From Staphylothermus marinus F1 (GTDB lineage: Archaea > Thermoproteota > Thermoprotei_A > Sulfolobales > Desulfurococcaceae), in NCBI RefSeq assembly GCF_000015945.1, contig NC_009033.1:1530001-1562000 (forward strand): a stretch of DNA of 32,000 nt. The letters run 5' to 3'. Every line of letters begins with the position of its first letter. Positions within the stretch are counted from its first letter, which is position 1. A program made the translations under genes and the position numbers. The notes below the pieces were generated by a model, which saw only the letters and a list, made by a program, of their open reading frames with translations, had not been told where the DNA came from and made no database searches. Below, piece by piece: positions 3,653-24,425 of the stretch.

Positions 3653-3986
3653 ATCACTATAGTCGTGGAGCCCGTTTCATCATTCCACATAAGTTTTATA
3701 AATATGGATATATGTATTTTGAAAAACAACAAGATACTTATCGAAGAGGTGCACATAGCTGATCAATTATAGAGTTCTCATTGTAGCATTAACATTAATA
3801 ACAATAAGCCTTATAGCTTTCTCCACAACTATTCAAGGAATCCCTACATGGGTTAGACCAGGAGTTTATTTTCAGTATAAAATAGAGGGGCGCATCATAA
3901 CTAATCCACCTATAAGAGAGGATCTAGCAAACTACTATGTAGTTGGTACTGCAAGATTTGTTGCTACATCATTTAACGAGACAGGA

Positions 3987-4535
3987 ATGAAAGGATACTA
4001 TGAGCTATTAAGTCTTAATGATACAAAAGGGTATTTCTCACAAGTACTCGGATCCCCTGGTAGTAAGGCTGAAGCCTTTGTTAAATGGGATACCGTATAT
4101 AATAAAACAAAGTTTAACATATATGTAAAACCAGAAACCATACCTGATAATCCAAAACCATACGAGTCTGTATCAACTAGAGATAATCTCGCATCTTATA
4201 TATTCATTAATGTAACATATGATCGCGGAACAGGCATTATACTTGACTATTATTATTTAAACGACGTCAATGAAACAACCAACTATACCAACTACAAATA
4301 CATACTACACTATAAACTCATAGATACAAATCTAGAACAACTCTATAAATATATTGGAAAAACATATACACCGATACAAACAAGCACCCCTACAACCACG
4401 GAAACAAGCAAGAACACAGGAACATCTAATAATGAAGAAAACAGTTACCCTATTCAGTACATAGGCGGAGCCATAATAGTTGTTATATTAGCCGTTCTCA
4501 TATATGAATTAATAGCTTCAAGAAAGAAAACTTAG
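3987..4535 (+). CDS. Predicted secreted or membrane-anchored protein (Thr-rich segment plus C-terminal TM helix); the true 5' end is probably upstream
   Basis: The ORF ends with TSTPTTTETSKNTGTS followed by the hydrophobic GGAIIVVILAVLIYELIA and then SRKKT. The same frame is open back to 3759 and there encodes a signal-peptide-like NYRVLIVALTLITISLIAFSTTIQG, with no ATG/GTG/TTG before 3987. Confidence 0.55.
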   Translation: MKGYYELLSLNDTKGYFSQVLGSPGSKAEAFVKWDTVYNKTKFNIYVKPETIPDNPKPYESVSTRDNLASYIFINVTYDRGTGIILDYYYLNDVNETTNYTNYKYILHYKLIDTNLEQLYKYIGKTYTPIQTSTPTTTETSKNTGTSNNEENSYPIQYIGGAIIVVILAVLIYELIASRKKT

Positions 4536-4585
4536 CGTTGCCGTTTTTAATTCTCTCCATAATAATATATTATTAAACGAAAACT

Positions 4586-7500
4586 TTGAATAGAAATGGT
4601 GTTTTTCCGGAGTTGAGAGAAAAACTATTATTAGAGCATATAAGGAATTTGAAGGAGAAAATACTTATTTATCCCCACGTATTAGCTCTTATAAATTTAG
4701 CCCATGATCTATTGGTGGAGGGATTAGAAAAAACACTTACCAAGTACAGAGATATTCTAGGAACAAATATTGACTATTTGAGAAAATGCGAATACATTAT
4801 TGATAAGGAGATAAGTAAGAAAAACATTAATACGATCATATCAAAACTAGACCTATGCATTATTGATCCAGATCTCAGATTGAAACTGCTAAATAATTTT
4901 CTTAATAAATATGGATTCGAGCAGTTATGCTCTGATCTATCACTTAATGATGAGTTGTGTTCAAAAACTAAGAAGCAAGTAGATATCTTAAGAAGGGAAT
5001 ATGATTTATTGAAATATTTATTCTATAAGCCAATAAACAATTACTTAGAACTAGCAATTTATTTAAACACTCCATTAAATGAACTCATTATAACAAGAGG
5101 ATTAATAAAGAGATCAAAATGGTTAGCAGACATTGTTACTAAAAATAATAATTTAATTATAATGGGGCCTAGCTTTACAGGTAAAACTACTCATTTATTC
5201 ATGGCCAGCTATATATTGATGAAAAAGCATAATCTACAACTTGCTACAAGTCTTTCTCCCCAGAATGTTCCGCGAACAAATATATATGTAGGCGATGATC
5301 TAAGCCTAGAAGAGCTGAGGCTACTTCAAGGAAAAAGATATATGGTTTCAATTAATTCTGGAGAAGTTGATCTAATGGATAAAATATTGTCAGGAGAAAA
5401 AATAGTATTGGGAAACGAGGATATTGGTAAACCTATTCGTTTCAAGAATAAAACAGTTGTTCTAGCTCTAACCAATCAATTATATCCGCCAAGCGAGATC
5501 CAAAAAATTTCAAGCGAGAAACTCCTTGAACGAACAGACAATTTAAAAATCTTACATATTAGACAATATGTTGCCAAGAATAAGCTGAAAGAAGAATATG
5601 ATAATATTACTGATCTATTAAAGAGGCTCATAACTAGATATTATTATATTCGTAAATATGCACCATTAATAGGCTTCATAATAACATCACATGGTATAAA
5701 CATGGTCTCCACGAAGAACATGATTATAACAATAACTAGATACAGGAACGCCTACGGTGATCCATCACTTCTACTAGGAAACATAAACAGAGAAATATAT
5801 ACAATACCCCATAAAACATGGATTAAGAGCCTGATAGAACTTTATGAAGACGAGAATATAAGTGAAATAATTGAAGAAATAAAATCTTTTCTCGAAGACA
5901 TATACTCACTAAGAAAAACTATCACATACAAAATAGAAAATCCGTTAGAAGCACTTGTTTTAGCAAACAATTATCCCGAATTACTATTGGAAACAATAAT
6001 TAGAGGATCGAAGAAAGCAATACATGTATCTCCAATACATTTTCTAGAATACTCGCAGAACTCAGATATATTAGAATTGAAGAAGAACATGAGGTTCGGT
6101 AAAGATTTAAGCGATATAGTATATTGTTTGATCTTGTTTATGCTTAAAAATAAGATAAAAACAGACTATTTGGATATTATACGGAAATATAAGGTGTCAA
6201 AGAAACAATCCAAGAAATTATTCACGGTTATTAATAGTGGTGAAAACGATTTAGAAGAATTAGTTAAGCAATATTATGCCGAGAAAAATATGTTAATAAA
6301 GAAGATCTTGATTGATCAGATAATAAATAAAATAGCTTTATCTAAGCAAATCCTACCCTTACTCAACCATCTATACAAGATTAATTCCTACAAGCTAAAA
6401 CAAAAACTATTCTATTTAACAGGAGAATATAATAAGTTGCGGAAACTACTTGAAAAGAAAAAATTGTTTAATAAACGAGTAATTATGAGGCTAGATTATC
6501 TAAGCGGTAAAATAGATAGGATTATCTCAAGCACTGATCCATTAAGTGAATACTATAAGGCAAACATATTTCTCAGAATAGGAGATCTTGATAGAGCCCT
6601 TCTAAGCATTAACAGATCATATATTGGCGCATATAACAGATTAATTAATGGAGAATTAAATTATGCATACACATACATACTTTCCCTATACAAACTAGCT
6701 GTAACGAATTTACTCGAGAAAAAAATTGATGAAGCACAAGCTATAATTAATAAATTCCTCGAAGATGTTGATTCGTATGGCCATATCATAGAAACAAAAC
6801 ATTTAGAACCAATATTATTGACAGTTATGTCTCTGAAAGAGATGCTGGATAAACATACATGTAACTATAAACACCTAGAATGCTTAAAAGCATCAATTCT
6901 CCTAGATAGTCCGAGAATATTTAGAAGACACCTTACAGAAATAATTAGTAATTTTAATAAATTAGATTTACATGAGATCTTAGAGATCGGACGTATTATT
7001 AGGAATGGACTCGTAAAGAAATGGATTAGCAGTGATCTAGTTGAAGCATATCTGAATAATATTGAAAAATACATTACTATTCCCCGCTTCAGATATGTTT
7101 ATCTCAGCATTATACCCTTATACATAGTTAGGAAGAAAAGAATTAATAAAAAATATCTTGAACTAGACAATCAATACAATGAGTTATTGGAGAACTACGG
7201 TATATGGGCAAAAAAGATCTATTTAGACTACTTATATGCCAAAGGAATATACTATGTAAAGATACTGAGAAATCCTGAGAAAGCCACATACTACTTTAAG
7301 AAAGCCCTAGAACTATTAAATACATTCAAGAACATATCTCGAAAAGTATATGTTAGGAAGAGAAACCTTCTGGAACTATGGATCAATATCTCCGAGATTC
7401 AAGACAATAATTACTCAACATGTCATAAATCCCTGAAAACCATGTTAACTAGAAAACTATCCCCAACAACAGAAGTGATGGCTAAGTATTGGTTTATCAA

Positions 7501-8587
7501 GTGCTTAATTGGAAATCAACTATATAGAACAGCTCTTGAAAAAACCTCTGAGATTGTATTGACCATTAGAGACCCGATCAACCGGTTTAAATTCATGACG
7601 TTATTATTCATTATTTCATATAGAATTAATCGTTTACTCGCTGAAAAGAGGATTGGAGAACTAATCAACTACTTATATGAACAACTTAGAAACAAGAAAA
7701 TAACGCGTAGCATGGCTATTCAGAGTATTTCGAGACTAATAATTATGCAGTGGAAACATGCTGGATCATATGGTATAGATAAGATTGTTAATGTATTAAT
7801 CGATCTATTAAGATCAGCCGATCTAGATTCTATAAAGCCTAATATACAGTATTTGAAGAGAATAGTTGTTATCCTTAGTGAATTAAATAAGCTGGACTAT
7901 ATTTATAAAATATTATCAAGGATCATAGAAACAATAAATGATCCAAATCTTATTCTATTACATATAGACTCATTATTAATGAGTGGCAGATATGGGGAAG
8001 CAGAGAGAGAATTAGGAAAAATATCTAATATTATCAGTAAAGATATTCGGCGAGCATATGAAGCCCAAATATTATATTATAAAGGTAAAACAGGCAAGGC
8101 TTTGAGGAAAGCAAACAAGATCATAGATAAAATTAATCGGTTAGACTTGAAAGCTAAGCTACTATATATTATTGGGAAAGCATGGGAATCCAAAGGAAAA
8201 CTCGATAAAGCTTATAAAGCATATACAGCTCTCCTAGAGATCAATGAGACGAACAAACATATACCTTTAACAATTATTGGAGACACCTATTATAGGCTTG
8301 CAACATATTACCAAGTGAAGAGAGACTATAACAAAGCATTAAAATATTATGAGCTAGCTCTTAAAACCTATGATAAAATAGTATTTGAGAACCAAAGATT
8401 CGAACAAATAATTAGAATTACCGATATATTACAGAATATATTATTAGTGTTTAGCGGCATTGAAAACCCATTCTTCTACGCTGAAGCCAGAGAACTAGTT
8501 TGTGAATACATAAACAGGCGATACGAGAAAATAAATAGAAAAGGATTAACCAACATGTTTACATACATATTAAATTCTTGTAAGTAA
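4586..8587 (+). CDS. Large P-loop NTPase with an SF3-helicase (D5/P4-primase-C)-like motif set, fused to a ~1000-aa helical-repeat/TPR region
   Basis: 1333-aa uninterrupted ORF. Walker A is MGPSFTGKTT (nt 5162-5191), Walker B is NIYVGDD (DD at 5294-5299), and motif C is VVLALTNQLYP (N at 5474-5476). TPR-like units occur at the C-terminus, e.g. YYRLATYYQVKRDYNKALKYYELALKTY. The TTG start is uncertain. Confidence 0.6.
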   Translation: MNRNGVFPELREKLLLEHIRNLKEKILIYPHVLALINLAHDLLVEGLEKTLTKYRDILGTNIDYLRKCEYIIDKEISKKNINTIISKLDLCIIDPDLRLKLLNNFLNKYGFEQLCSDLSLNDELCSKTKKQVDILRREYDLLKYLFYKPINNYLELAIYLNTPLNELIITRGLIKRSKWLADIVTKNNNLIIMGPSFTGKTTHLFMASYILMKKHNLQLATSLSPQNVPRTNIYVGDDLSLEELRLLQGKRYMVSINSGEVDLMDKILSGEKIVLGNEDIGKPIRFKNKTVVLALTNQLYPPSEIQKISSEKLLERTDNLKILHIRQYVAKNKLKEEYDNITDLLKRLITRYYYIRKYAPLIGFIITSHGINMVSTKNMIITITRYRNAYGDPSLLLGNINREIYTIPHKTWIKSLIELYEDENISEIIEEIKSFLEDIYSLRKTITYKIENPLEALVLANNYPELLLETIIRGSKKAIHVSPIHFLEYSQNSDILELKKNMRFGKDLSDIVYCLILFMLKNKIKTDYLDIIRKYKVSKKQSKKLFTVINSGENDLEELVKQYYAEKNMLIKKILIDQIINKIALSKQILPLLNHLYKINSYKLKQKLFYLTGEYNKLRKLLEKKKLFNKRVIMRLDYLSGKIDRIISSTDPLSEYYKANIFLRIGDLDRALLSINRSYIGAYNRLINGELNYAYTYILSLYKLAVTNLLEKKIDEAQAIINKFLEDVDSYGHIIETKHLEPILLTVMSLKEMLDKHTCNYKHLECLKASILLDSPRIFRRHLTEIISNFNKLDLHEILEIGRIIRNGLVKKWISSDLVEAYLNNIEKYITIPRFRYVYLSIIPLYIVRKKRINKKYLELDNQYNELLENYGIWAKKIYLDYLYAKGIYYVKILRNPEKATYYFKKALELLNTFKNISRKVYVRKRNLLELWINISEIQDNNYSTCHKSLKTMLTRKLSPTTEVMAKYWFIKCLIGNQLYRTALEKTSEIVLTIRDPINRFKFMTLLFIISYRINRLLAEKRIGELINYLYEQLRNKKITRSMAIQSISRLIIMQWKHAGSYGIDKIVNVLIDLLRSADLDSIKPNIQYLKRIVVILSELNKLDYIYKILSRIIETINDPNLILLHIDSLLMSGRYGEAERELGKISNIISKDIRRAYEAQILYYKGKTGKALRKANKIIDKINRLDLKAKLLYIIGKAWESKGKLDKAYKAYTALLEINETNKHIPLTIIGDTYYRLATYYQVKRDYNKALKYYELALKTYDKIVFENQRFEQIIRITDILQNILLVFSGIENPFFYAEARELVCEYINRRYEKINRKGLTNMFTYILNSCK

Positions 8588-8738
8588 TTGGTTGAGTGCA
8601 AGATATACAATTATTACTTATTTTATTAGTTATGAATGCAGTTTTGATAATTTATCATAAGTTTACTGTTTTAAAACTATATTATTTATTGATGCCATTA
8701 TTTTATACTTGTCCGAAAAAGTTAACAGGTGCTTTCTC

Positions 8739-9989
8739 ATGAAAATGCTTCTGCTAGGTTTTGCGAGTAGGTTGCATGGTGAGCTATACTATAAGTCTAT
8801 GTTTCAAGAAGTAACTGATATCTTATCTGTATTTAAAGATCTAGAAATACACAAAGATATAATTACTGAGCCAGTAACCATTGATGTTAACAACTATGAA
8901 TTAATTATTGCTTATTTATTGACTGGTGGAACAAGCAAGCTTGCTTATAAGGTATTAATGAGCACAGATAGGAAACCTGTTCTTATAATTGCTCATAGTA
9001 AACATAATAGCTTAGCATCAGCTCTTTCATTAAGAACGAAACTATTAGATGCTGGTGTAAAGGTTAAGCTAATTTATTTCTTGGATAAAAATGATTTATT
9101 AATGAAGTTTACAAGGTTTTATAAGGGTGTTGTTGCTGGGTATAGTTTAAAATATTTGAGAATAATAGAGATCAACGATTATCCTGAGACTAGTGATGAA
9201 GGAAAAAGATTCGCAGATAGATTCGGAGCAGAGATTATCCATGTAAACTACGATGAACTATGGAGGATAGCCGGAGAAGCTACAATTGACGATATAAGAG
9301 AATTAGAGAATCTCGTGCATCAATACATTGATCTCTCAGGCACTAATAAACAGTATCTAGACAAAGTTCTACGCATATATTATGCTCTACGAAAGCTCTT
9401 ATCAATACACGGAGCAAACGCTATTGTTATTGATTGTTTTCCCCTAGTTCTCAAATACAATATTACACCATGCTTAGCGGTTGCAATGATGAATGCAGAG
9501 GGAATACCGACTGCTTGTGAAAATGACTATTATAGTCTGGTCTCACTATTTATAAGCTTGGCGTTAACTGGTTATCCTGGATGGATATCTAATCCAAGCG
9601 GTATAACTAGTGATGGTTATTTAAGATTTGCTCATTGCACAATAGCACCGGTTCTAGGAAGAAATTGTTTCTTAACAACACATTTTGAAACAGGAAACCC
9701 ATATGCTGTGGTGTGCAGGTTTAGAGCTGATAAAGTATTATTTATTAGGGTTGACAAGGGTTTCGATGGGTTAACAATTTATAGAGGCAAAGTAGTTCGT
9801 TCAGGACTATTAGAGCCAGGTTATTGTAGAACACAATTAATCATAGATACTGGAACATTGAAGCCCGAAGAATTCGTTGAGAAAGCAACAGGAAACCACC
9901 ACGTGTTTATTCCTTGGAGTAAGAGATTAATTGAATCATTAAAACATATGGCTTGGTGGATGAATTGGAGAATAGAGATAAGAAACTAG
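8739..9989 (+). CDS. Hypothetical protein, possibly a sugar isomerase-like (FucI/AraA-like) fold
   Basis: I prefer ATG 8739 because GGTG lies at 8727-8730. The family call rests on weak recollection of LLTGGTS, IIAHSKHNSLASAL and CENDYYS blocks in L-fucose-isomerase-like proteins. The coding call is solid; the function is not. Confidence 0.3.
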   Translation: MKMLLLGFASRLHGELYYKSMFQEVTDILSVFKDLEIHKDIITEPVTIDVNNYELIIAYLLTGGTSKLAYKVLMSTDRKPVLIIAHSKHNSLASALSLRTKLLDAGVKVKLIYFLDKNDLLMKFTRFYKGVVAGYSLKYLRIIEINDYPETSDEGKRFADRFGAEIIHVNYDELWRIAGEATIDDIRELENLVHQYIDLSGTNKQYLDKVLRIYYALRKLLSIHGANAIVIDCFPLVLKYNITPCLAVAMMNAEGIPTACENDYYSLVSLFISLALTGYPGWISNPSGITSDGYLRFAHCTIAPVLGRNCFLTTHFETGNPYAVVCRFRADKVLFIRVDKGFDGLTIYRGKVVRSGLLEPGYCRTQLIIDTGTLKPEEFVEKATGNHHVFIPWSKRLIESLKHMAWWMNWRIEIRN

Positions 9990-10984
9990 GAGAACTCGGA
10001 GAAGAAGGTGTTCTCGAGAAAATTATTTCTAAATACATACATAAACCCTTGCCTGGAGAATACTTAGATTATCCAGATGATGCACGAGATATTCTCCCAA
10101 TTTCTCCACGAATACTCGTGAATATTGATGGATACAGTATTTCCTCTATGAAGCTTCCATGGAGGACATGGTCTGATGTAGGATACGTAGCTGTGGCGGG
10201 GGCTATAAGTGATCAAATAGCTAAGGGAGCTGTTCCCAGAGATATAATGGTTTCACTAGGTCTACCCCCCAGCATGGAGGCAAGCATTGTTGAAGAAATA
10301 TATAAGGGCATTGATGAAGCTTCAAGAGATTATAATTTAAGACTCCTCGGAGGAGACACTAATTCATCTAGTACACCATGGATTAGTGTTGCAGTAATAG
10401 GTTATACTACCGCTAAGAAACCGCCTAGTAGGAAAAACGCTAAGCCCGGAGACATAGTTGTTGTTACAAGTCTTTATGGCGCAATGGGTTATGTAGCGAT
10501 TAATGGGGTTGAGAATGCTATACATAAGGAATGGGTTGTAGAAGCAACAAAACGTCCAAGACCATTTCTTGAAACAGCAATTGTTATAGCGAGTAATTAT
10601 AGAGGAGTACATGCTTCAATAGATGTAAGCGATGGATTAGGTTATGCCTTAAAAGAGTTATCGAAGAGGTCAAATGTTCGGATTATTCTGGAAGATAAAC
10701 CCCTCTACTATAAGGAGTTGGAAGAAATATGTAATGGAAACACTCGTTGCTTATGGAAATATGTATTGAATGGCGGAGAAGAATACGGCGTTATACTAAC
10801 AATAGATCCCAGGCTTTCAGATATGATAATTGATTATATGAAGAAGTTTAGAATACCACATAAAATAATTGGAAGAGTAGAGCAGGGACATGGCTTAGTG
10901 TTCGAAAAAGAAGAGATCAGCATAGATGAAATAGTGAGATGGGACCATTTTAAAGGATGGGTACCAATATTCAGCAATAGTTAA
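9953..10984 (+). CDS. thiL: Thiamine-monophosphate kinase (PurM/AIR-synthase-related superfamily)
   Basis: The N-terminal LGELGEEGVLEKII, then DDARDI, AISDQIAKGAVP, LLGGDTNSS and AKPGDIVVVT match the ThiL block order. Every candidate start (TTG 9953, GTG 9956, TTG 9965) lies inside the upstream gene. Confidence 0.7.
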   Translation: MVDELENRDKKLGELGEEGVLEKIISKYIHKPLPGEYLDYPDDARDILPISPRILVNIDGYSISSMKLPWRTWSDVGYVAVAGAISDQIAKGAVPRDIMVSLGLPPSMEASIVEEIYKGIDEASRDYNLRLLGGDTNSSSTPWISVAVIGYTTAKKPPSRKNAKPGDIVVVTSLYGAMGYVAINGVENAIHKEWVVEATKRPRPFLETAIVIASNYRGVHASIDVSDGLGYALKELSKRSNVRIILEDKPLYYKELEEICNGNTRCLWKYVLNGGEEYGVILTIDPRLSDMIIDYMKKFRIPHKIIGRVEQGHGLVFEKEEISIDEIVRWDHFKGWVPIFSNS

Positions 10985-20747: not shown

Positions 20748-20862
20748 TATTGTAGGGATTCTCGAGATTTTGAAGTTTCCTCGATGTTTCTCTATATAGG
20801 AAAGAATTTATATGTTTAATGTAAAATTAAATATAGTGTGTCAATTATTTGGGGCGCATATT

Positions 20863-22881
20863 ATGGGAAGTGATAAAATTATTTATACAACTGTGTTAAC
20901 CATTATTATCTTATTAATTATAGCTTCTCAGTTCGCAATAACAACAAGACTTATCACAGTATCCACAATCAGCCCTGGTACAGTAATATATTCATTTGAT
21001 GATCCCTTGGGCGATGATAATGGTTATGGTAATATAACTTATCCTACGGATTCAGTATTTCAGCCAGGAGTATTTGATCTTGTGAAATTCCAGATAGAGG
21101 ATACAGCATCTACACTATATTTCAAGGTTACACTGGATAATCTAGGAGATAATCCATGGAATGGTCCAAATGGTTTCTCACTACAATATATACAAATTTA
21201 TATTCTAACATCTAATCAGACCTTACCAGTTAACTATACAACGTCGGGATTAAATGTTATGGTTAGCCATGGCTGGAACTATGCTGTATTAATGGTTCCT
21301 GGATGGGATACTGCACCTGTCCCCAACGGCCAGTTATCCGCTATTTATGATGCTAACGGAAATGTTGTCGCTGTTGAGGGTTCTACTCCAGGGTTCGATG
21401 TATATGTTGATCCAAACATAAACAATACTATTGTGGCATCAATTGACAAAACACTCCTATACGATACCCAGAACCTACCATTATGGAAGATAGCGGTTGT
21501 TGTTGCTGGATACGATGGTTACGCACCCTACAAGGTTAGACAAGTAGTTGCTGGAAACTCTACACAATGGGAGTTTGGCGGAGGCGATCCTGCAGCTATA
21601 AATGCTGGTGTACAGCCTGAAGTAATTGATTTACTTGCACCCACAGCTAATGATCAATACCAGATGTTATCATCATATAATGCATCAACCGGGACACCAG
21701 CAAATATAACTGGTATAAGTGTTTCATCAATGACTTCAACCACTATTACAACAACCACGCCGACAACAACTACACCACCGCCTCAAACTGTTTTCGAAAT
21801 GAATGATCCCTTGGGCGATGATAATGGTTATGGTAATATAACTTATCCTACGGATTCAGTATTTCAGCCAGGAGTATTTGATCTTGCAGGCTTTAAAGTC
21901 GTTGATGCTGGTTCAACCATACAGTTTTATGTATACTTGGATAATCTAGGAGATAATCCATGGAATGGTCCAAATGGTTTCTCGTTGCAGTATATACACA
22001 TTTATATCTATACTGGTGATAGTAGCTTACCAGTCAACACTACATCTTTTGGTGAAAACGTTGATTATAGTCCTGGATGGCACATGGCTATATTATTAAC
22101 TCCTGGATGGGATACTGCACCTGTCCCCAATGGCCAGTTATCCGCAATATATTATTATAATGGAACAGCTTATGCACAGGATAATAACTTGTTCAAAGTA
22201 TATGTTGATACAAGCAACAATACTATAATAGCAGAAGTCGATAAGTCGCTTCTACTAGACACGAACATTATTAATAACTGGAAATACGCTGTCATAATGA
22301 CAGGCTACGATGGTTATCAACCAGATAAGGTTAGAAAAGTGGTTGCTGGAAACTCTACACAATGGGAGTTTGGCGGTGGTGATCCTGCAGCTATAAATGC
22401 TGGTGTACAACCATATGTTATAGACTTATTAGCGCCAACATCTAGTGAGCAATACCAGATGTTATCATCATATGACCCCGCGGCTGGAACACGTGCTGTA
22501 GTCTACGTACAATATCCAGTCACAACACCAACAACTACCACAACTACTACGACTTCTCCAACCAACACTACGACTACCACAACGACAACAACTACCACAG
22601 CCACTACGACAACAACGCCTCCACCAACAAATACAACAACTACATCGCCTCCTACAACGACTACGACAACCACAACAACCACTACAACTACATCTCCAAC
22701 AACAACTACTACAACGACAACGACTACGACTACTACACCGCCTACTGGTGGAGGAGAGATTATTCCAGAAAAAGGTCAGGGTCAGGGTTCTAGCTGGGTT
22801 ACTTGGGCTATTATTGTCGCGATTGTAGCGGCTGTTGCTGTGATTGGTTATTTTGTTTATAGATTCTATAAATCATGGTGA
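20863..22881 (+). CDS. Surface glycoprotein: signal/TM, two glucodextranase-C-like (DPLGDDNGYG...YPT) domains, a poly-Thr/Pro stalk and a C-terminal TM anchor
   Basis: I prefer ATG 20863 (MGSDKIIYTTVLTIIILLIIASQF). There are two ~265-aa repeats, each starting DPLGDDNGYGNITYPTDSVFQPGVFDL. A >70-aa T/P run follows, and the C-terminal WVTWAIIVAIVAAVAVIGYFVY is followed by RFYKSW. NxS/T sequons are frequent. Confidence 0.75.
   Translation: MGSDKIIYTTVLTIIILLIIASQFAITTRLITVSTISPGTVIYSFDDPLGDDNGYGNITYPTDSVFQPGVFDLVKFQIEDTASTLYFKVTLDNLGDNPWNGPNGFSLQYIQIYILTSNQTLPVNYTTSGLNVMVSHGWNYAVLMVPGWDTAPVPNGQLSAIYDANGNVVAVEGSTPGFDVYVDPNINNTIVASIDKTLLYDTQNLPLWKIAVVVAGYDGYAPYKVRQVVAGNSTQWEFGGGDPAAINAGVQPEVIDLLAPTANDQYQMLSSYNASTGTPANITGISVSSMTSTTITTTTPTTTTPPPQTVFEMNDPLGDDNGYGNITYPTDSVFQPGVFDLAGFKVVDAGSTIQFYVYLDNLGDNPWNGPNGFSLQYIHIYIYTGDSSLPVNTTSFGENVDYSPGWHMAILLTPGWDTAPVPNGQLSAIYYYNGTAYAQDNNLFKVYVDTSNNTIIAEVDKSLLLDTNIINNWKYAVIMTGYDGYQPDKVRKVVAGNSTQWEFGGGDPAAINAGVQPYVIDLLAPTSSEQYQMLSSYDPAAGTRAVVYVQYPVTTPTTTTTTTTSPTNTTTTTTTTTTTATTTTTPPPTNTTTTSPPTTTTTTTTTTTTTSPTTTTTTTTTTTTTPPTGGGEIIPEKGQGQGSSWVTWAIIVAIVAAVAVIGYFVYRFYKSW
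20999..22473 (+). repeat. Intragenic tandem duplication (offset 804 nt at the 5' end, 795 nt at the 3' end) with islands of perfect DNA identity
   Basis: Aligned by hand: 20999-21082 = 21803-21886 (84/84), 21134-21179 = 21938-21983 (46/46), 21297-21341 vs 22101-22145 (1 mismatch), 21547-21614 vs 22342-22409 (2 mismatches), and 21655-21678 = 22450-22473. Confidence 0.95.
22521..22745 (+). repeat. Low-complexity ACN/CCN codon run encoding the poly-Thr/Pro stalk
   Basis: It is directly visible as acaac/actac/acgac repeats and translates to TTPTTTTTTTTSPTNTTTTTTTTTTTATTTTTPPPTNTTTTSPPTTTTTTTTTTTTTSPTTTTTTTTTTTTTPP. Confidence 0.9.
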
Positions 22882-23908: not shown

Positions 23909-23943
23909 GTTTCTATGGACCCTTTAAAAACATATTATATTAA

Positions 23944-24425
23944 TTTCAATTCTTTCTATGTTGTTACCATTATGTCCCCCGTATCACTAGAGCTTGTAGA
24001 CTCATACACTTTCAATTCTTTCTATGTTGTTACATTGGCATCCACAATGTTATTGTTTTTATGGGTTTCCTGCTTTCAATTCTTTCTATGTTGTTACTTC
24101 AAGCCCTGATATACCTTCTCAGCAACATTTAATGTTCTTTCAATTCTTTCTATGTTGTTACAACTATTATATTGGATCCCGCCTTGTAAAAGTGTATGTA
24201 TCTTTCAATTCTTTCTATGTTGTTACTCTACAAATCTGAAAAAGACCTTATCGAGGTTGATACTGACTTTCAATTCTTTCTATGTTGTTACCTATACTAT
24301 TACATTCGAGGGCTACCCCAATACTAAGCCTTTCAATTCTTTCTATGTTGTTACACTTTAATTTCTGTATAATTTGAAGCATCAACAGTTACTACTATGC
24401 TTTCAATTCTTTCTATGTTGTTACT
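23944..24425 (-). CRISPR. CRISPR array with 8 repeats of 25 nt and 7 spacers of 38-45 nt; no cas genes in the window
   Basis: On the plus strand the repeat is CTTTCAATTCTTTCTATGTTGTTAC. Copies lie at 23944 (first base A instead of C), 24010, 24074, 24138, 24203, 24268, 24331 and 24401. Spacer lengths are 41, 39, 39, 40, 40, 38 and 45 nt. On the minus strand the repeat reads GTAACAACATAGAAAGAATTGAAAG and ends in the ATTGAAAG typical of crenarchaeal type I/III repeats, so the array is probably transcribed from the minus strand. The variant repeat then sits at the trailer end. Confidence 0.95.

Follow-up and report, generated by a model that had tools for sequence, protein, structure and literature searches.

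The giant gene at positions 4586 to 8587 of a 32,000-nucleotide (nt) stretch of Staphylothermus marinus F1 DNA (contig NC_009033.1, positions 1,530,001 to 1,562,000; the whole stretch is referred to here as the window) probably encodes a very divergent STAND-like signaling NTPase (of the NLR/Apaf-1/MalT type, in the STAND-Cdc6-Orc branch of AAA+) and not a helicase. The fold class, domain architecture, conservation pattern, and genomic context that point to this assignment come directly from the results presented below. An identical sequence is present in public records of S. marinus F1 (ABN70658.1/WP_011839852.1) under the names "Tetratricopeptide TPR_2 repeat protein" and "hypothetical protein." An earlier interpretation made from the letters alone (the sequence-only reading) had described the product as a superfamily 3 (SF3) helicase-like NTPase of the D5/P4-primase-C type, with no primase domain, fused to an array of about 1000 amino acids (aa) of tetratricopeptide repeats (TPRs) and other helices. 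Its aside that the protein "recalls STAND-type ATPases" turned out to be the better description.

The domain layout was derived from profile searches, a family alignment of nine sequences, and two AlphaFold models. Model 1 covers aa 1-580, was built from a 4-sequence alignment, and has a predicted local distance difference test score (pLDDT) of 55; it is usable for aa 1-143 and 171-300 only. Model 2 covers aa 165-520, was built from nine sequences, and has a pLDDT of 89 and a predicted template modeling score (pTM) of 0.85. Residue numbers of the giant protein count from the TTG at 4586 throughout. The segments are as follows.

4586..8587, plus strand: giant open reading frame (ORF), intact, 1333 aa from the TTG at 4586
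4586..5080, plus strand: N-terminal all-helical domain (aa 1-165), a putative output or adaptor domain; pLDDT 68-84 over aa 11-140 in model 1
5096..5485, plus strand: compact AAA+/STAND-type P-loop nucleotide-binding domain (NBD; aa 171-300), six predicted strands; pLDDT about 90 in model 2
5165..5191, plus strand: Walker A, GPSFTGKTT (aa 194-202)
5279..5299, plus strand: Walker B, NIYVGDD (aa 232-238)
5387..5488, plus strand: block formerly read as SF3 motifs B'/C, LSGEKIV...TNQLYP (aa 268-301); fifth and sixth strands of the model
5486..5695, plus strand: post-core helical bundle, HD1- or lid-like (aa 301-370), carrying the conserved YAPLIGF block (aa 358-364)
5696..5860, plus strand: winged-helix-like unit (aa 371-425), with a YRNAYGDP loop, a beta-hairpin, and the invariant His409
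5861..6385, plus strand: helical linker (aa 426-600), the least conserved part, with no TPR signal
6386..8395, plus strand: TPR-like alpha-solenoid (aa about 601-1270), with Pfam-confirmed TPR units at aa 1157-1265 (nt 8054-8380)
8396..8584, plus strand: C-terminal cap (aa 1271-1333), with C1306 and C1332 invariant in 9/9 members

The ORF and all of the motifs named in the sequence-only reading were located at the residues given for them, including individual TPR units at aa 1157-1180, 1190-1219, and 1235-1262. A Walker A pattern alone arose in 2.9% of composition-preserving shuffles of the sequence, and the combination of a hydrophobic strand, Walker A, and a downstream hhh-x-D[DE] motif arose in 0.015% of them, this combination having been set post hoc with the sequence already in view. 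Because of the 0.015% shuffle rate and the confident alpha/beta P-loop fold in the model, the P-loop is not a chance pattern.

In model 2, the core runs in the order helix; beta1, P-loop, and helix; a short beta2; beta3 with Walker B; and three more strands. It is followed by a four-helix bundle (aa 302-369), a helix, a strand, a helix, and a beta-hairpin that leads through the His409 junction into the next helix. STANDs are defined by a core that is extended C-terminally by a helical domain and a winged helix-turn-helix domain (bioRxiv 10.1101/2022.07.19.500537). The best match of model 2 in a Foldseek search of the PDB was Orc1/Cdc6 of S. solfataricus (2qby_A; E value of 6.9e-4, probability of 1.00), and further top matches were the Dark apoptosome (3j9k), Apaf-1 (1z6t; TMq of 0.42, probability of 1.00), ORC4, DnaA, and NOD2. 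RFC was also named among the structural neighbors of the P-loop region. Against a viral structure library rich in SF3 proteins, the top matches were RFC clamp loaders, an NLR-like protein, and AAA ATPases, with SF3-type proteins appearing from rank 30. All significant and near-significant fold matches were AAA+/STAND proteins. The corresponding search with model 1 gave nothing significant; Avs4 and plant NLRs were among its weak fold matches. The Walker B motif is of the hhhhDD type, as in the AP-ATPase STANDs.

Several results weigh against the STAND-like assignment. The protein has no significant match to the NB-ARC, NACHT, nSTAND1-6, AAA_16, or ATPase_2 profiles; the E values of the fold matches are marginal, and Orc1/Cdc6 scores equal to the STANDs; and Walker A is separated from Walker B by about 37 aa, which is atypically short and is accompanied by an extra predicted strand. 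Scans of the full protein with Pfam, NCBIfam, PADLOC, and PHROGs detected no P-loop family and only TPR matches, and no Cdc6/ORC family of Pfam or NCBIfam was matched. The nine family members were also scanned singly against Pfam at an E value of <=10, a search in which HMMER filters remove most matches above about 0.1. The only recurring hint at a P-loop family was nSTAND3, found in three of the nine members with a best E value of 0.0016; this match falls below the cutoff (17 bits versus a cutoff of 27.2) and spans aa 181-215. We attribute the short spacing of the two Walker motifs to an unusually compact core and not to SF3 ancestry.

Other P-loop classes were considered and rejected. The NACHT signature at Walker B is D[GAS]hDE (bioRxiv 10.1101/2022.07.19.500537), which is missing from the giant protein, where aa 236-243 read GDDLSLEE. 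KAP, RecA, and ABC-type P-loops gave only chance-level Pfam matches in single members.

A domesticated viral or plasmid replication helicase of the SF3 (D5/P4-primase-C) type fused to TPRs is an extremely improbable source of the NTPase. Because SF3 forms a clade within AAA+, some resemblance is expected. The two Walker motifs lie about 37 aa apart within a core of about 110 aa, a spacing that agrees with SF3 and is not specific to it. Rep40 of AAV2 reached rank 16 (E value of 0.16) in the weak model 1 search, and a few SF3-type viral proteins stood at ranks 30-44 of the viral library. On the other side, no SF3 helicase was among the 50 best PDB matches of model 2 in Foldseek, and the model extends past the core into a helical bundle and a winged-helix-like unit, an arrangement that resembles the hallmark of STAND and Cdc6-Orc proteins. 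What defines the D5/P4 clade is the set of D5_N, an SF3 core, and Pox_D5, and its motifs are Walker A, Walker B, motif C, and an Arg finger (PMC9611036); no feature specific to that clade was found in the giant protein. In the single scans of the nine members, no D5_N, DUF5906, Pox_D5, Parvo_NS1, or RNA_helicase match was listed under the threshold and filters given above, and no PHROG was matched. Asn297, proposed as the motif C residue, is not conserved: TNQ becomes TDQ in Staphylothermus hellenicus (81% identity) and DDE in the 39% ortholog, distant members have no Asn, and the supposed motif C strand is the sixth in model 2 and not beta4. When the region was compared by tblastn with 50,697 phage records and 72,556 plasmid records, only chance-level matches were returned (E value of about 0.9). 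Profile and AlphaFold/Foldseek searches, which the sequence-only reading had itself proposed as a check, therefore place the P-loop in a non-SF3 class, an outcome that contradicts that reading on its own terms.

The remark that a primase domain is absent was borne out, as no primase family was found, and so was the description of housekeeping flanks without an integrase: no integrase, transposase, or primase was found in the window, and the synteny is stable. For the suggestion that the gene is a domesticated viral helicase or a relic of an integrated element, we found no supporting evidence. An integrated element was rejected on the absence of an integrase and of a tRNA gene in the window, the stable synteny, and a G+C content that is only slightly lower across the giant gene (about 0.29-0.32, versus about 0.32-0.41 for most of the window).

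The giant protein belongs to, or founds, a tiny, lineage-restricted, unannotated family. A word-index search retrieved only three clusters, two from Staphylothermus (97% and 81% identity) and one from a metagenome (39%). An exhaustive HMMER search of 1.84 billion representatives with a profile of the N-terminal 580 aa yielded only 11 family members. All are from Desulfurococcales-type archaea (the named sources being Staphylothermus, a "Staphylothermus sp." metagenome-assembled genome [MAG], a Desulfurococcales MAG, and a Thermoprotei MAG), and every full-length member has 1290-1400 aa and the same layout. The Desulfurococcales MAG JAMOPC01 contains two copies of the giant gene (L004 and L006) on separate contigs, which are 92% identical and have matching neighbors; co-binning of two strains is a likelier explanation than paralogy.

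Residue conservation was read from the nine-sequence alignment. Down to 15% identity, G199, Y300, L314, E336, L397, H409, P483, C1306, and C1332 are invariant. Mean pairwise identity is 25-28% for the block formed by the NBD, the helical bundle, and the winged-helix-like unit, versus 18% for aa 426-600, and the helical bundle (aa 301-370) is the best-conserved segment of the family. The catalytic residues follow a different course. Residue 200, the Walker A Lys, is Lys in five of the nine members (the window protein, P0002, P0003, P0004, and P0007) and Arg in the remaining four (P0005, P0006, P0011, and P0012, with GRRT, GRTT, or GRRS); the Ser/Thr that follows is replaced by Arg in 3/9. The Walker B DD pair is kept in 5/9, reduced to a single Asp in 2/9, and lost in 2/9 (IYSV and VIPR). 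In the Staphylothermus clade, down to about 30% identity, every sequence has a canonical G/AxxxxGK[ST] and hhhhDD. Nucleotide binding and hydrolysis are probably retained in that clade, because its catalytic residues are intact; deeper-branch members, in which the P-loop site has decayed repeatedly, are on the same sequence grounds probably nucleotide-independent scaffolds. Disrupted Walker motifs are already established among STANDs (bioRxiv 10.1101/2022.07.19.500537).

Two further conserved features lie outside the P-loop. In model 2, His409 (codon 5810-5812) occupies the junction from strand to helix that follows the hairpin. Its invariance and predicted position make it a candidate MHD-type nucleotide sensor, and it may be equivalent to the His of MHD/LHD-type motifs. 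In the C-terminal cap, C1306 (codon 8501-8503) and C1332 (codon 8579-8581) are kept despite a regional identity of only about 12-40% (the closest ortholog excepted). The pair could make up a disulfide or a site for a metal or ligand.

The C-terminal half of the protein is a long TPR-type array. At aa 1233-1261, Pfam gave TPR_2 (38.1 bits; cutoff of 27) and TPR_1 (36.8 bits; cutoff of 27.8). We used hhalign for a profile-profile comparison between the Pfam-confirmed TPR block (aa 1151-1270) and further parts of the family alignment. The TPR block matched aa 601-760 (E value of 1.9e-5, probability of 78%), aa 761-900 (1.1e-3, 21%), aa 901-1030 (3.1e-4, 39%), and aa 1031-1150 (2.2e-3, 13%), versus E values of >0.1 and probabilities of <=0.5% for five control blocks. 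In all nine members, the Pfam matches in the solenoid region were to TPR-type families only, the TPR_MalT model being matched in 5/9. Judged from these profiles, the solenoid is about 630 aa long (about 640-1270) and follows a non-TPR helical linker. The large TPR-type array fused to a P-loop NTPase that the sequence-only reading had proposed is therefore real, and its extent is smaller than the roughly 1000 aa proposed, since the TPR-like part is limited to about aa 640-1270 and aa 426-600 have no TPR signal. At the other end of the protein, the N-terminal domain had no significant Foldseek match and no Pfam, NCBIfam, PHROG, or PADLOC match; comparison of N-terminal region profiles with all PDB sequences returned coiled-coil and low-complexity noise only.

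By analogy with known STANDs, we infer that the protein works as a ligand-sensing switch or scaffold that is gated by nucleotide and passes from a closed to an open state. At rest, the TPR solenoid would keep the protein closed and nucleotide bound, with His409 possibly touching the bound nucleotide. Once a ligand or partner protein bound to the solenoid, the closed state would be released and nucleotide exchange allowed; the nucleotide-binding modules might then oligomerize and gather the N-terminal helical domains to deliver an output.

The start of the giant gene is probably the second in-frame TTG, at 4613, which lies 27 nt past the TTG at 4586 and gives a product of 1324 aa. This start is likely because it aligns (at residue 10) with the first position of three proteins, namely, the annotated S. 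marinus F1 product (1324 aa), the S. hellenicus ortholog, and the 39% ortholog, and because an A/T-rich, TATA-like stretch is located at about 4557-4578, upstream of both TTG codons. The TATA-like stretch fits a short-leader transcript that begins between the two. A scan for bacterial promoters and terminators gave fewer matches than in shuffled sequences and is uninformative for an archaeon.

The giant gene is located among housekeeping genes, i.e., genes for MoeA, an MBL-fold protein, a ThiL-like protein, a DSP phosphatase, FeoB, AFOR, MoaA, MoaC, ArgRS, and an aminotransferase. A membrane protein upstream and two proteins downstream (one of about 420 aa and one ThiL-like) accompany it in nearly all loci.

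3759..4535, plus strand: co-conserved upstream partner, a type I membrane-anchored protein whose ectodomain is probably glycosylated; from a canonical start, the ORF covers 3987-4535 (182 aa)
8709..9989, plus strand: downstream protein of 426 aa, not assigned to any Pfam family and found in synteny with the giant gene at most loci
9953..10984, plus strand: ThiL-like AIR-synthase-family protein (TIGR01379, 175 bits, just under the cutoff of 184), overlapping the 426-aa gene by 37 nt

NxS/T sequons are numerous in the upstream partner, which also carries a Ser/Thr-rich stalk and, at its C terminus, a transmembrane anchor with a cytoplasmic tail of only about 5 residues. Its homologs beside other family members have 255-267 aa and an N-terminal signal peptide. 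In the window, an in-frame signal-peptide part begins at 3759 and is 53% identical to the homolog in locus L005, and no ATG, GTG, or TTG follows the TAG at 3756-3758. Since this conserved part is in frame but lacks those codons, the gene likely uses a noncanonical start (CTG at 3759, ATC at 3762, or ATT). The S. hellenicus annotation of the partner (183 aa) seems to be shortened likewise. The match of the 426-aa protein to sulfoquinovose isomerase is weak and partial (23.8 bits versus a cutoff of 700); this isomerase-like protein and the ThiL-like protein are 59% and 70% identical to their counterparts in locus L001 and 51% and 42% identical in L007.

Gene order is kept in loci L007 and L009 though the giant protein there is only 23% identical. 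L009 is without the isomerase-like gene, and L008 differs in that its downstream gene of about 431 aa has no tblastn match to the isomerase-like gene at an E value of <=1e-5. The giant gene and the membrane protein gene are the two fastest evolving of the neighborhood: in L005, identity is 30% for the giant protein and 47% for the membrane protein, compared with 52-66% for the neighbors, and in L007 the corresponding values are 23%, 28%, and 42-51%. The phyletic spread and neighborhood, also proposed for checking in the sequence-only reading, upheld the housekeeping setting, with an order conserved down to 23% identity, and gave no mobile-element pattern. Single copy, stable synteny, and housekeeping flanks argue for a single-copy chromosomal gene that is vertically inherited in Desulfurococcales-type archaea and is not a mobile or defense-island gene. 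For the same reason, i.e., that the gene is single copy, chromosomal, and vertically inherited, the evidence favors a cellular regulatory or scaffolding role over that of a mobile defense gene.

The surroundings of L007 and L009 differ from the Staphylothermus neighborhood. In these distant members, a conserved series of genes without annotation (about 545, 290, and 262 aa), a GT4 glycosyltransferase gene, and a TtuA/ThiS pair lie ahead of the giant gene and its membrane partner, and a gene for an AAA_15/AAA_23 ATPase follows the ThiL-like gene.

It is unlikely that the protein is a catalytically dead pseudo-NTPase, i.e., a purely structural TPR scaffold (such as an assembly platform tied to the co-conserved membrane glycoprotein) in which the P-loop is a relic and nucleotide is irrelevant even in Staphylothermus. 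Such a scaffold would suit the change of the Walker A Lys to Arg (4/9), the change of the next Ser/Thr to Arg (3/9), and the loss or reduction of the Walker B pair (4/9), while length, fold, and invariant residues stay, and it would suit a vertically inherited, single-copy gene in a housekeeping context that is tightly paired with a fast-evolving membrane protein. However, the Staphylothermus clade keeps canonical Walker motifs even at about 30% identity, a divergence at which neutral positions are saturated, and the block of NBD, HD1, and winged-helix-like domain is the best-conserved part of the protein.

The tripartite architecture is shared with Avs and bacterial NLR-related proteins, which raises the question of an antiviral defense sensor whose solenoid recognizes a viral protein and whose N-terminal domain is a novel effector. 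The weak fold matches to Avs4 and plant NLRs, the fast local evolution of the giant gene and its partner, and a small CRISPR array about 15 kb away would agree with it. We nevertheless consider it quite improbable: no PADLOC model matches the protein, and the family gives only weak, single-member, TPR-type matches; the gene is single copy with stable housekeeping synteny down to 23% identity, unlike the patchy, island-borne, horizontally transferred defense STANDs; no nuclease, protease, TIR, or SIR2-type effector was recognized; and the family is tiny (11 representatives). A STAND transcription regulator of the MalT/AfsR type, acting on the neighboring genes, would explain the MalT-like TPR model in 5/9 members and a chromosomally stable gene with the same downstream genes in synteny. 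It is very improbable, however, given that no helix-turn-helix or other DNA-binding domain is found at either end in any member, that the N-terminal domain has no fold match, and that the downstream genes are not always adjacent (L009 and L008).

A more specific form of the STAND-like assignment is unlikely as a whole. It would make the protein a lineage-specific archaeal NLR-like switch, undetected by current profiles, with a minimal core and a new N-terminal output domain, that acts with the upstream, coevolving surface glycoprotein and that has lost its ATPase site repeatedly while keeping the His409 module. Surveillance of the envelope or cell surface, or virus sensing, in a hyperthermophile could be examples of its role. 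If such a switch exists, the family would provide a natural series from nucleotide-gated to nucleotide-independent STANDs.

Two other features of the window lie farther from the giant gene. A CRISPR array at 23943-24424 (plus strand), between the MoaA-like and MoaC genes, has eight copies of a 25-nt repeat (Rfam CRISPR-DR27) at a spacing of about 64 nt, and the strong negative AT skew at 24-25 kb is due to it. No cas gene was found in Pfam scans of the checked window ORFs of at least 100 aa. At 20812-22881 (plus strand), a 689-aa protein matches the SLH-like binding module Glucodextran_C very strongly (540 bits, spread over two stretches) and may be a cell surface protein.

Public annotation of the giant protein overlooks its putative nucleotide-binding switch module. 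If the STAND-like assignment is correct, a vertically inherited, hyperthermophilic crenarchaeal family in a housekeeping setting would join a class that is known mainly from immunity and cell death. The class would also gain a very compact nucleotide-binding oligomerization module and, for studies of the nucleotide dependence of STAND function, a set of orthologs with intact and decayed catalytic sites. The analysis also removes a false lead, namely, a domesticated viral helicase or a relic integrated element.

Among known systems, the STANDs (Apaf-1, Dark, plant NLRs, MalT, and bacterial Avs) share with the giant protein the tripartite layout of an N-terminal domain, a nucleotide-binding oligomerization module (in the giant protein a predicted one, of P-loop core, helical domain, and winged-helix-like domain), and a C-terminal TPR-type superhelical sensor. 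The hhhhDD Walker B is common to it and to STANDs of the AP-ATPase/NB-ARC and MalT type, and both include members with a degenerate P-loop. The conserved His of the giant protein, between a wing strand and the following helix, may correspond in position to the LHD/MHD His of STANDs, and the best fold matches include Apaf-1, Dark, and NOD2. The giant protein differs in the distance between Walker A and Walker B (about 37 aa, compared with about 70-85 aa in STANDs) and in its extra predicted strand, in the absence of a TTR-type sensor-1 Arg, and in its orphan N-terminal domain; whereas the spread of STANDs is patchy and horizontal, that of the giant family is narrow and vertical. The SF3 helicases of the D5/P4/pRN1 clade have in common with it an AAA+-class P-loop whose Walker A and B motifs are tightly spaced, but the giant protein has no conserved motif C Asn, D5_N, Pox_D5, primase, or mobile-element context. 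Orc1/Cdc6 proteins are characterized by an hhhhDE Walker B, an initiator-specific motif, and a sensor-2 Arg. One of them, S. solfataricus Orc1-1 (2qby_A), is the best single Foldseek match, the alignment covering the AAA+ core, the lid, and the winged-helix domain. They belong to the STAND-Cdc6-Orc branch of AAA+, which is probably also that of the giant protein, but have about 400 aa and neither an N-terminal helical domain nor a TPR array, whereas the giant protein, with 1333 aa, has both.

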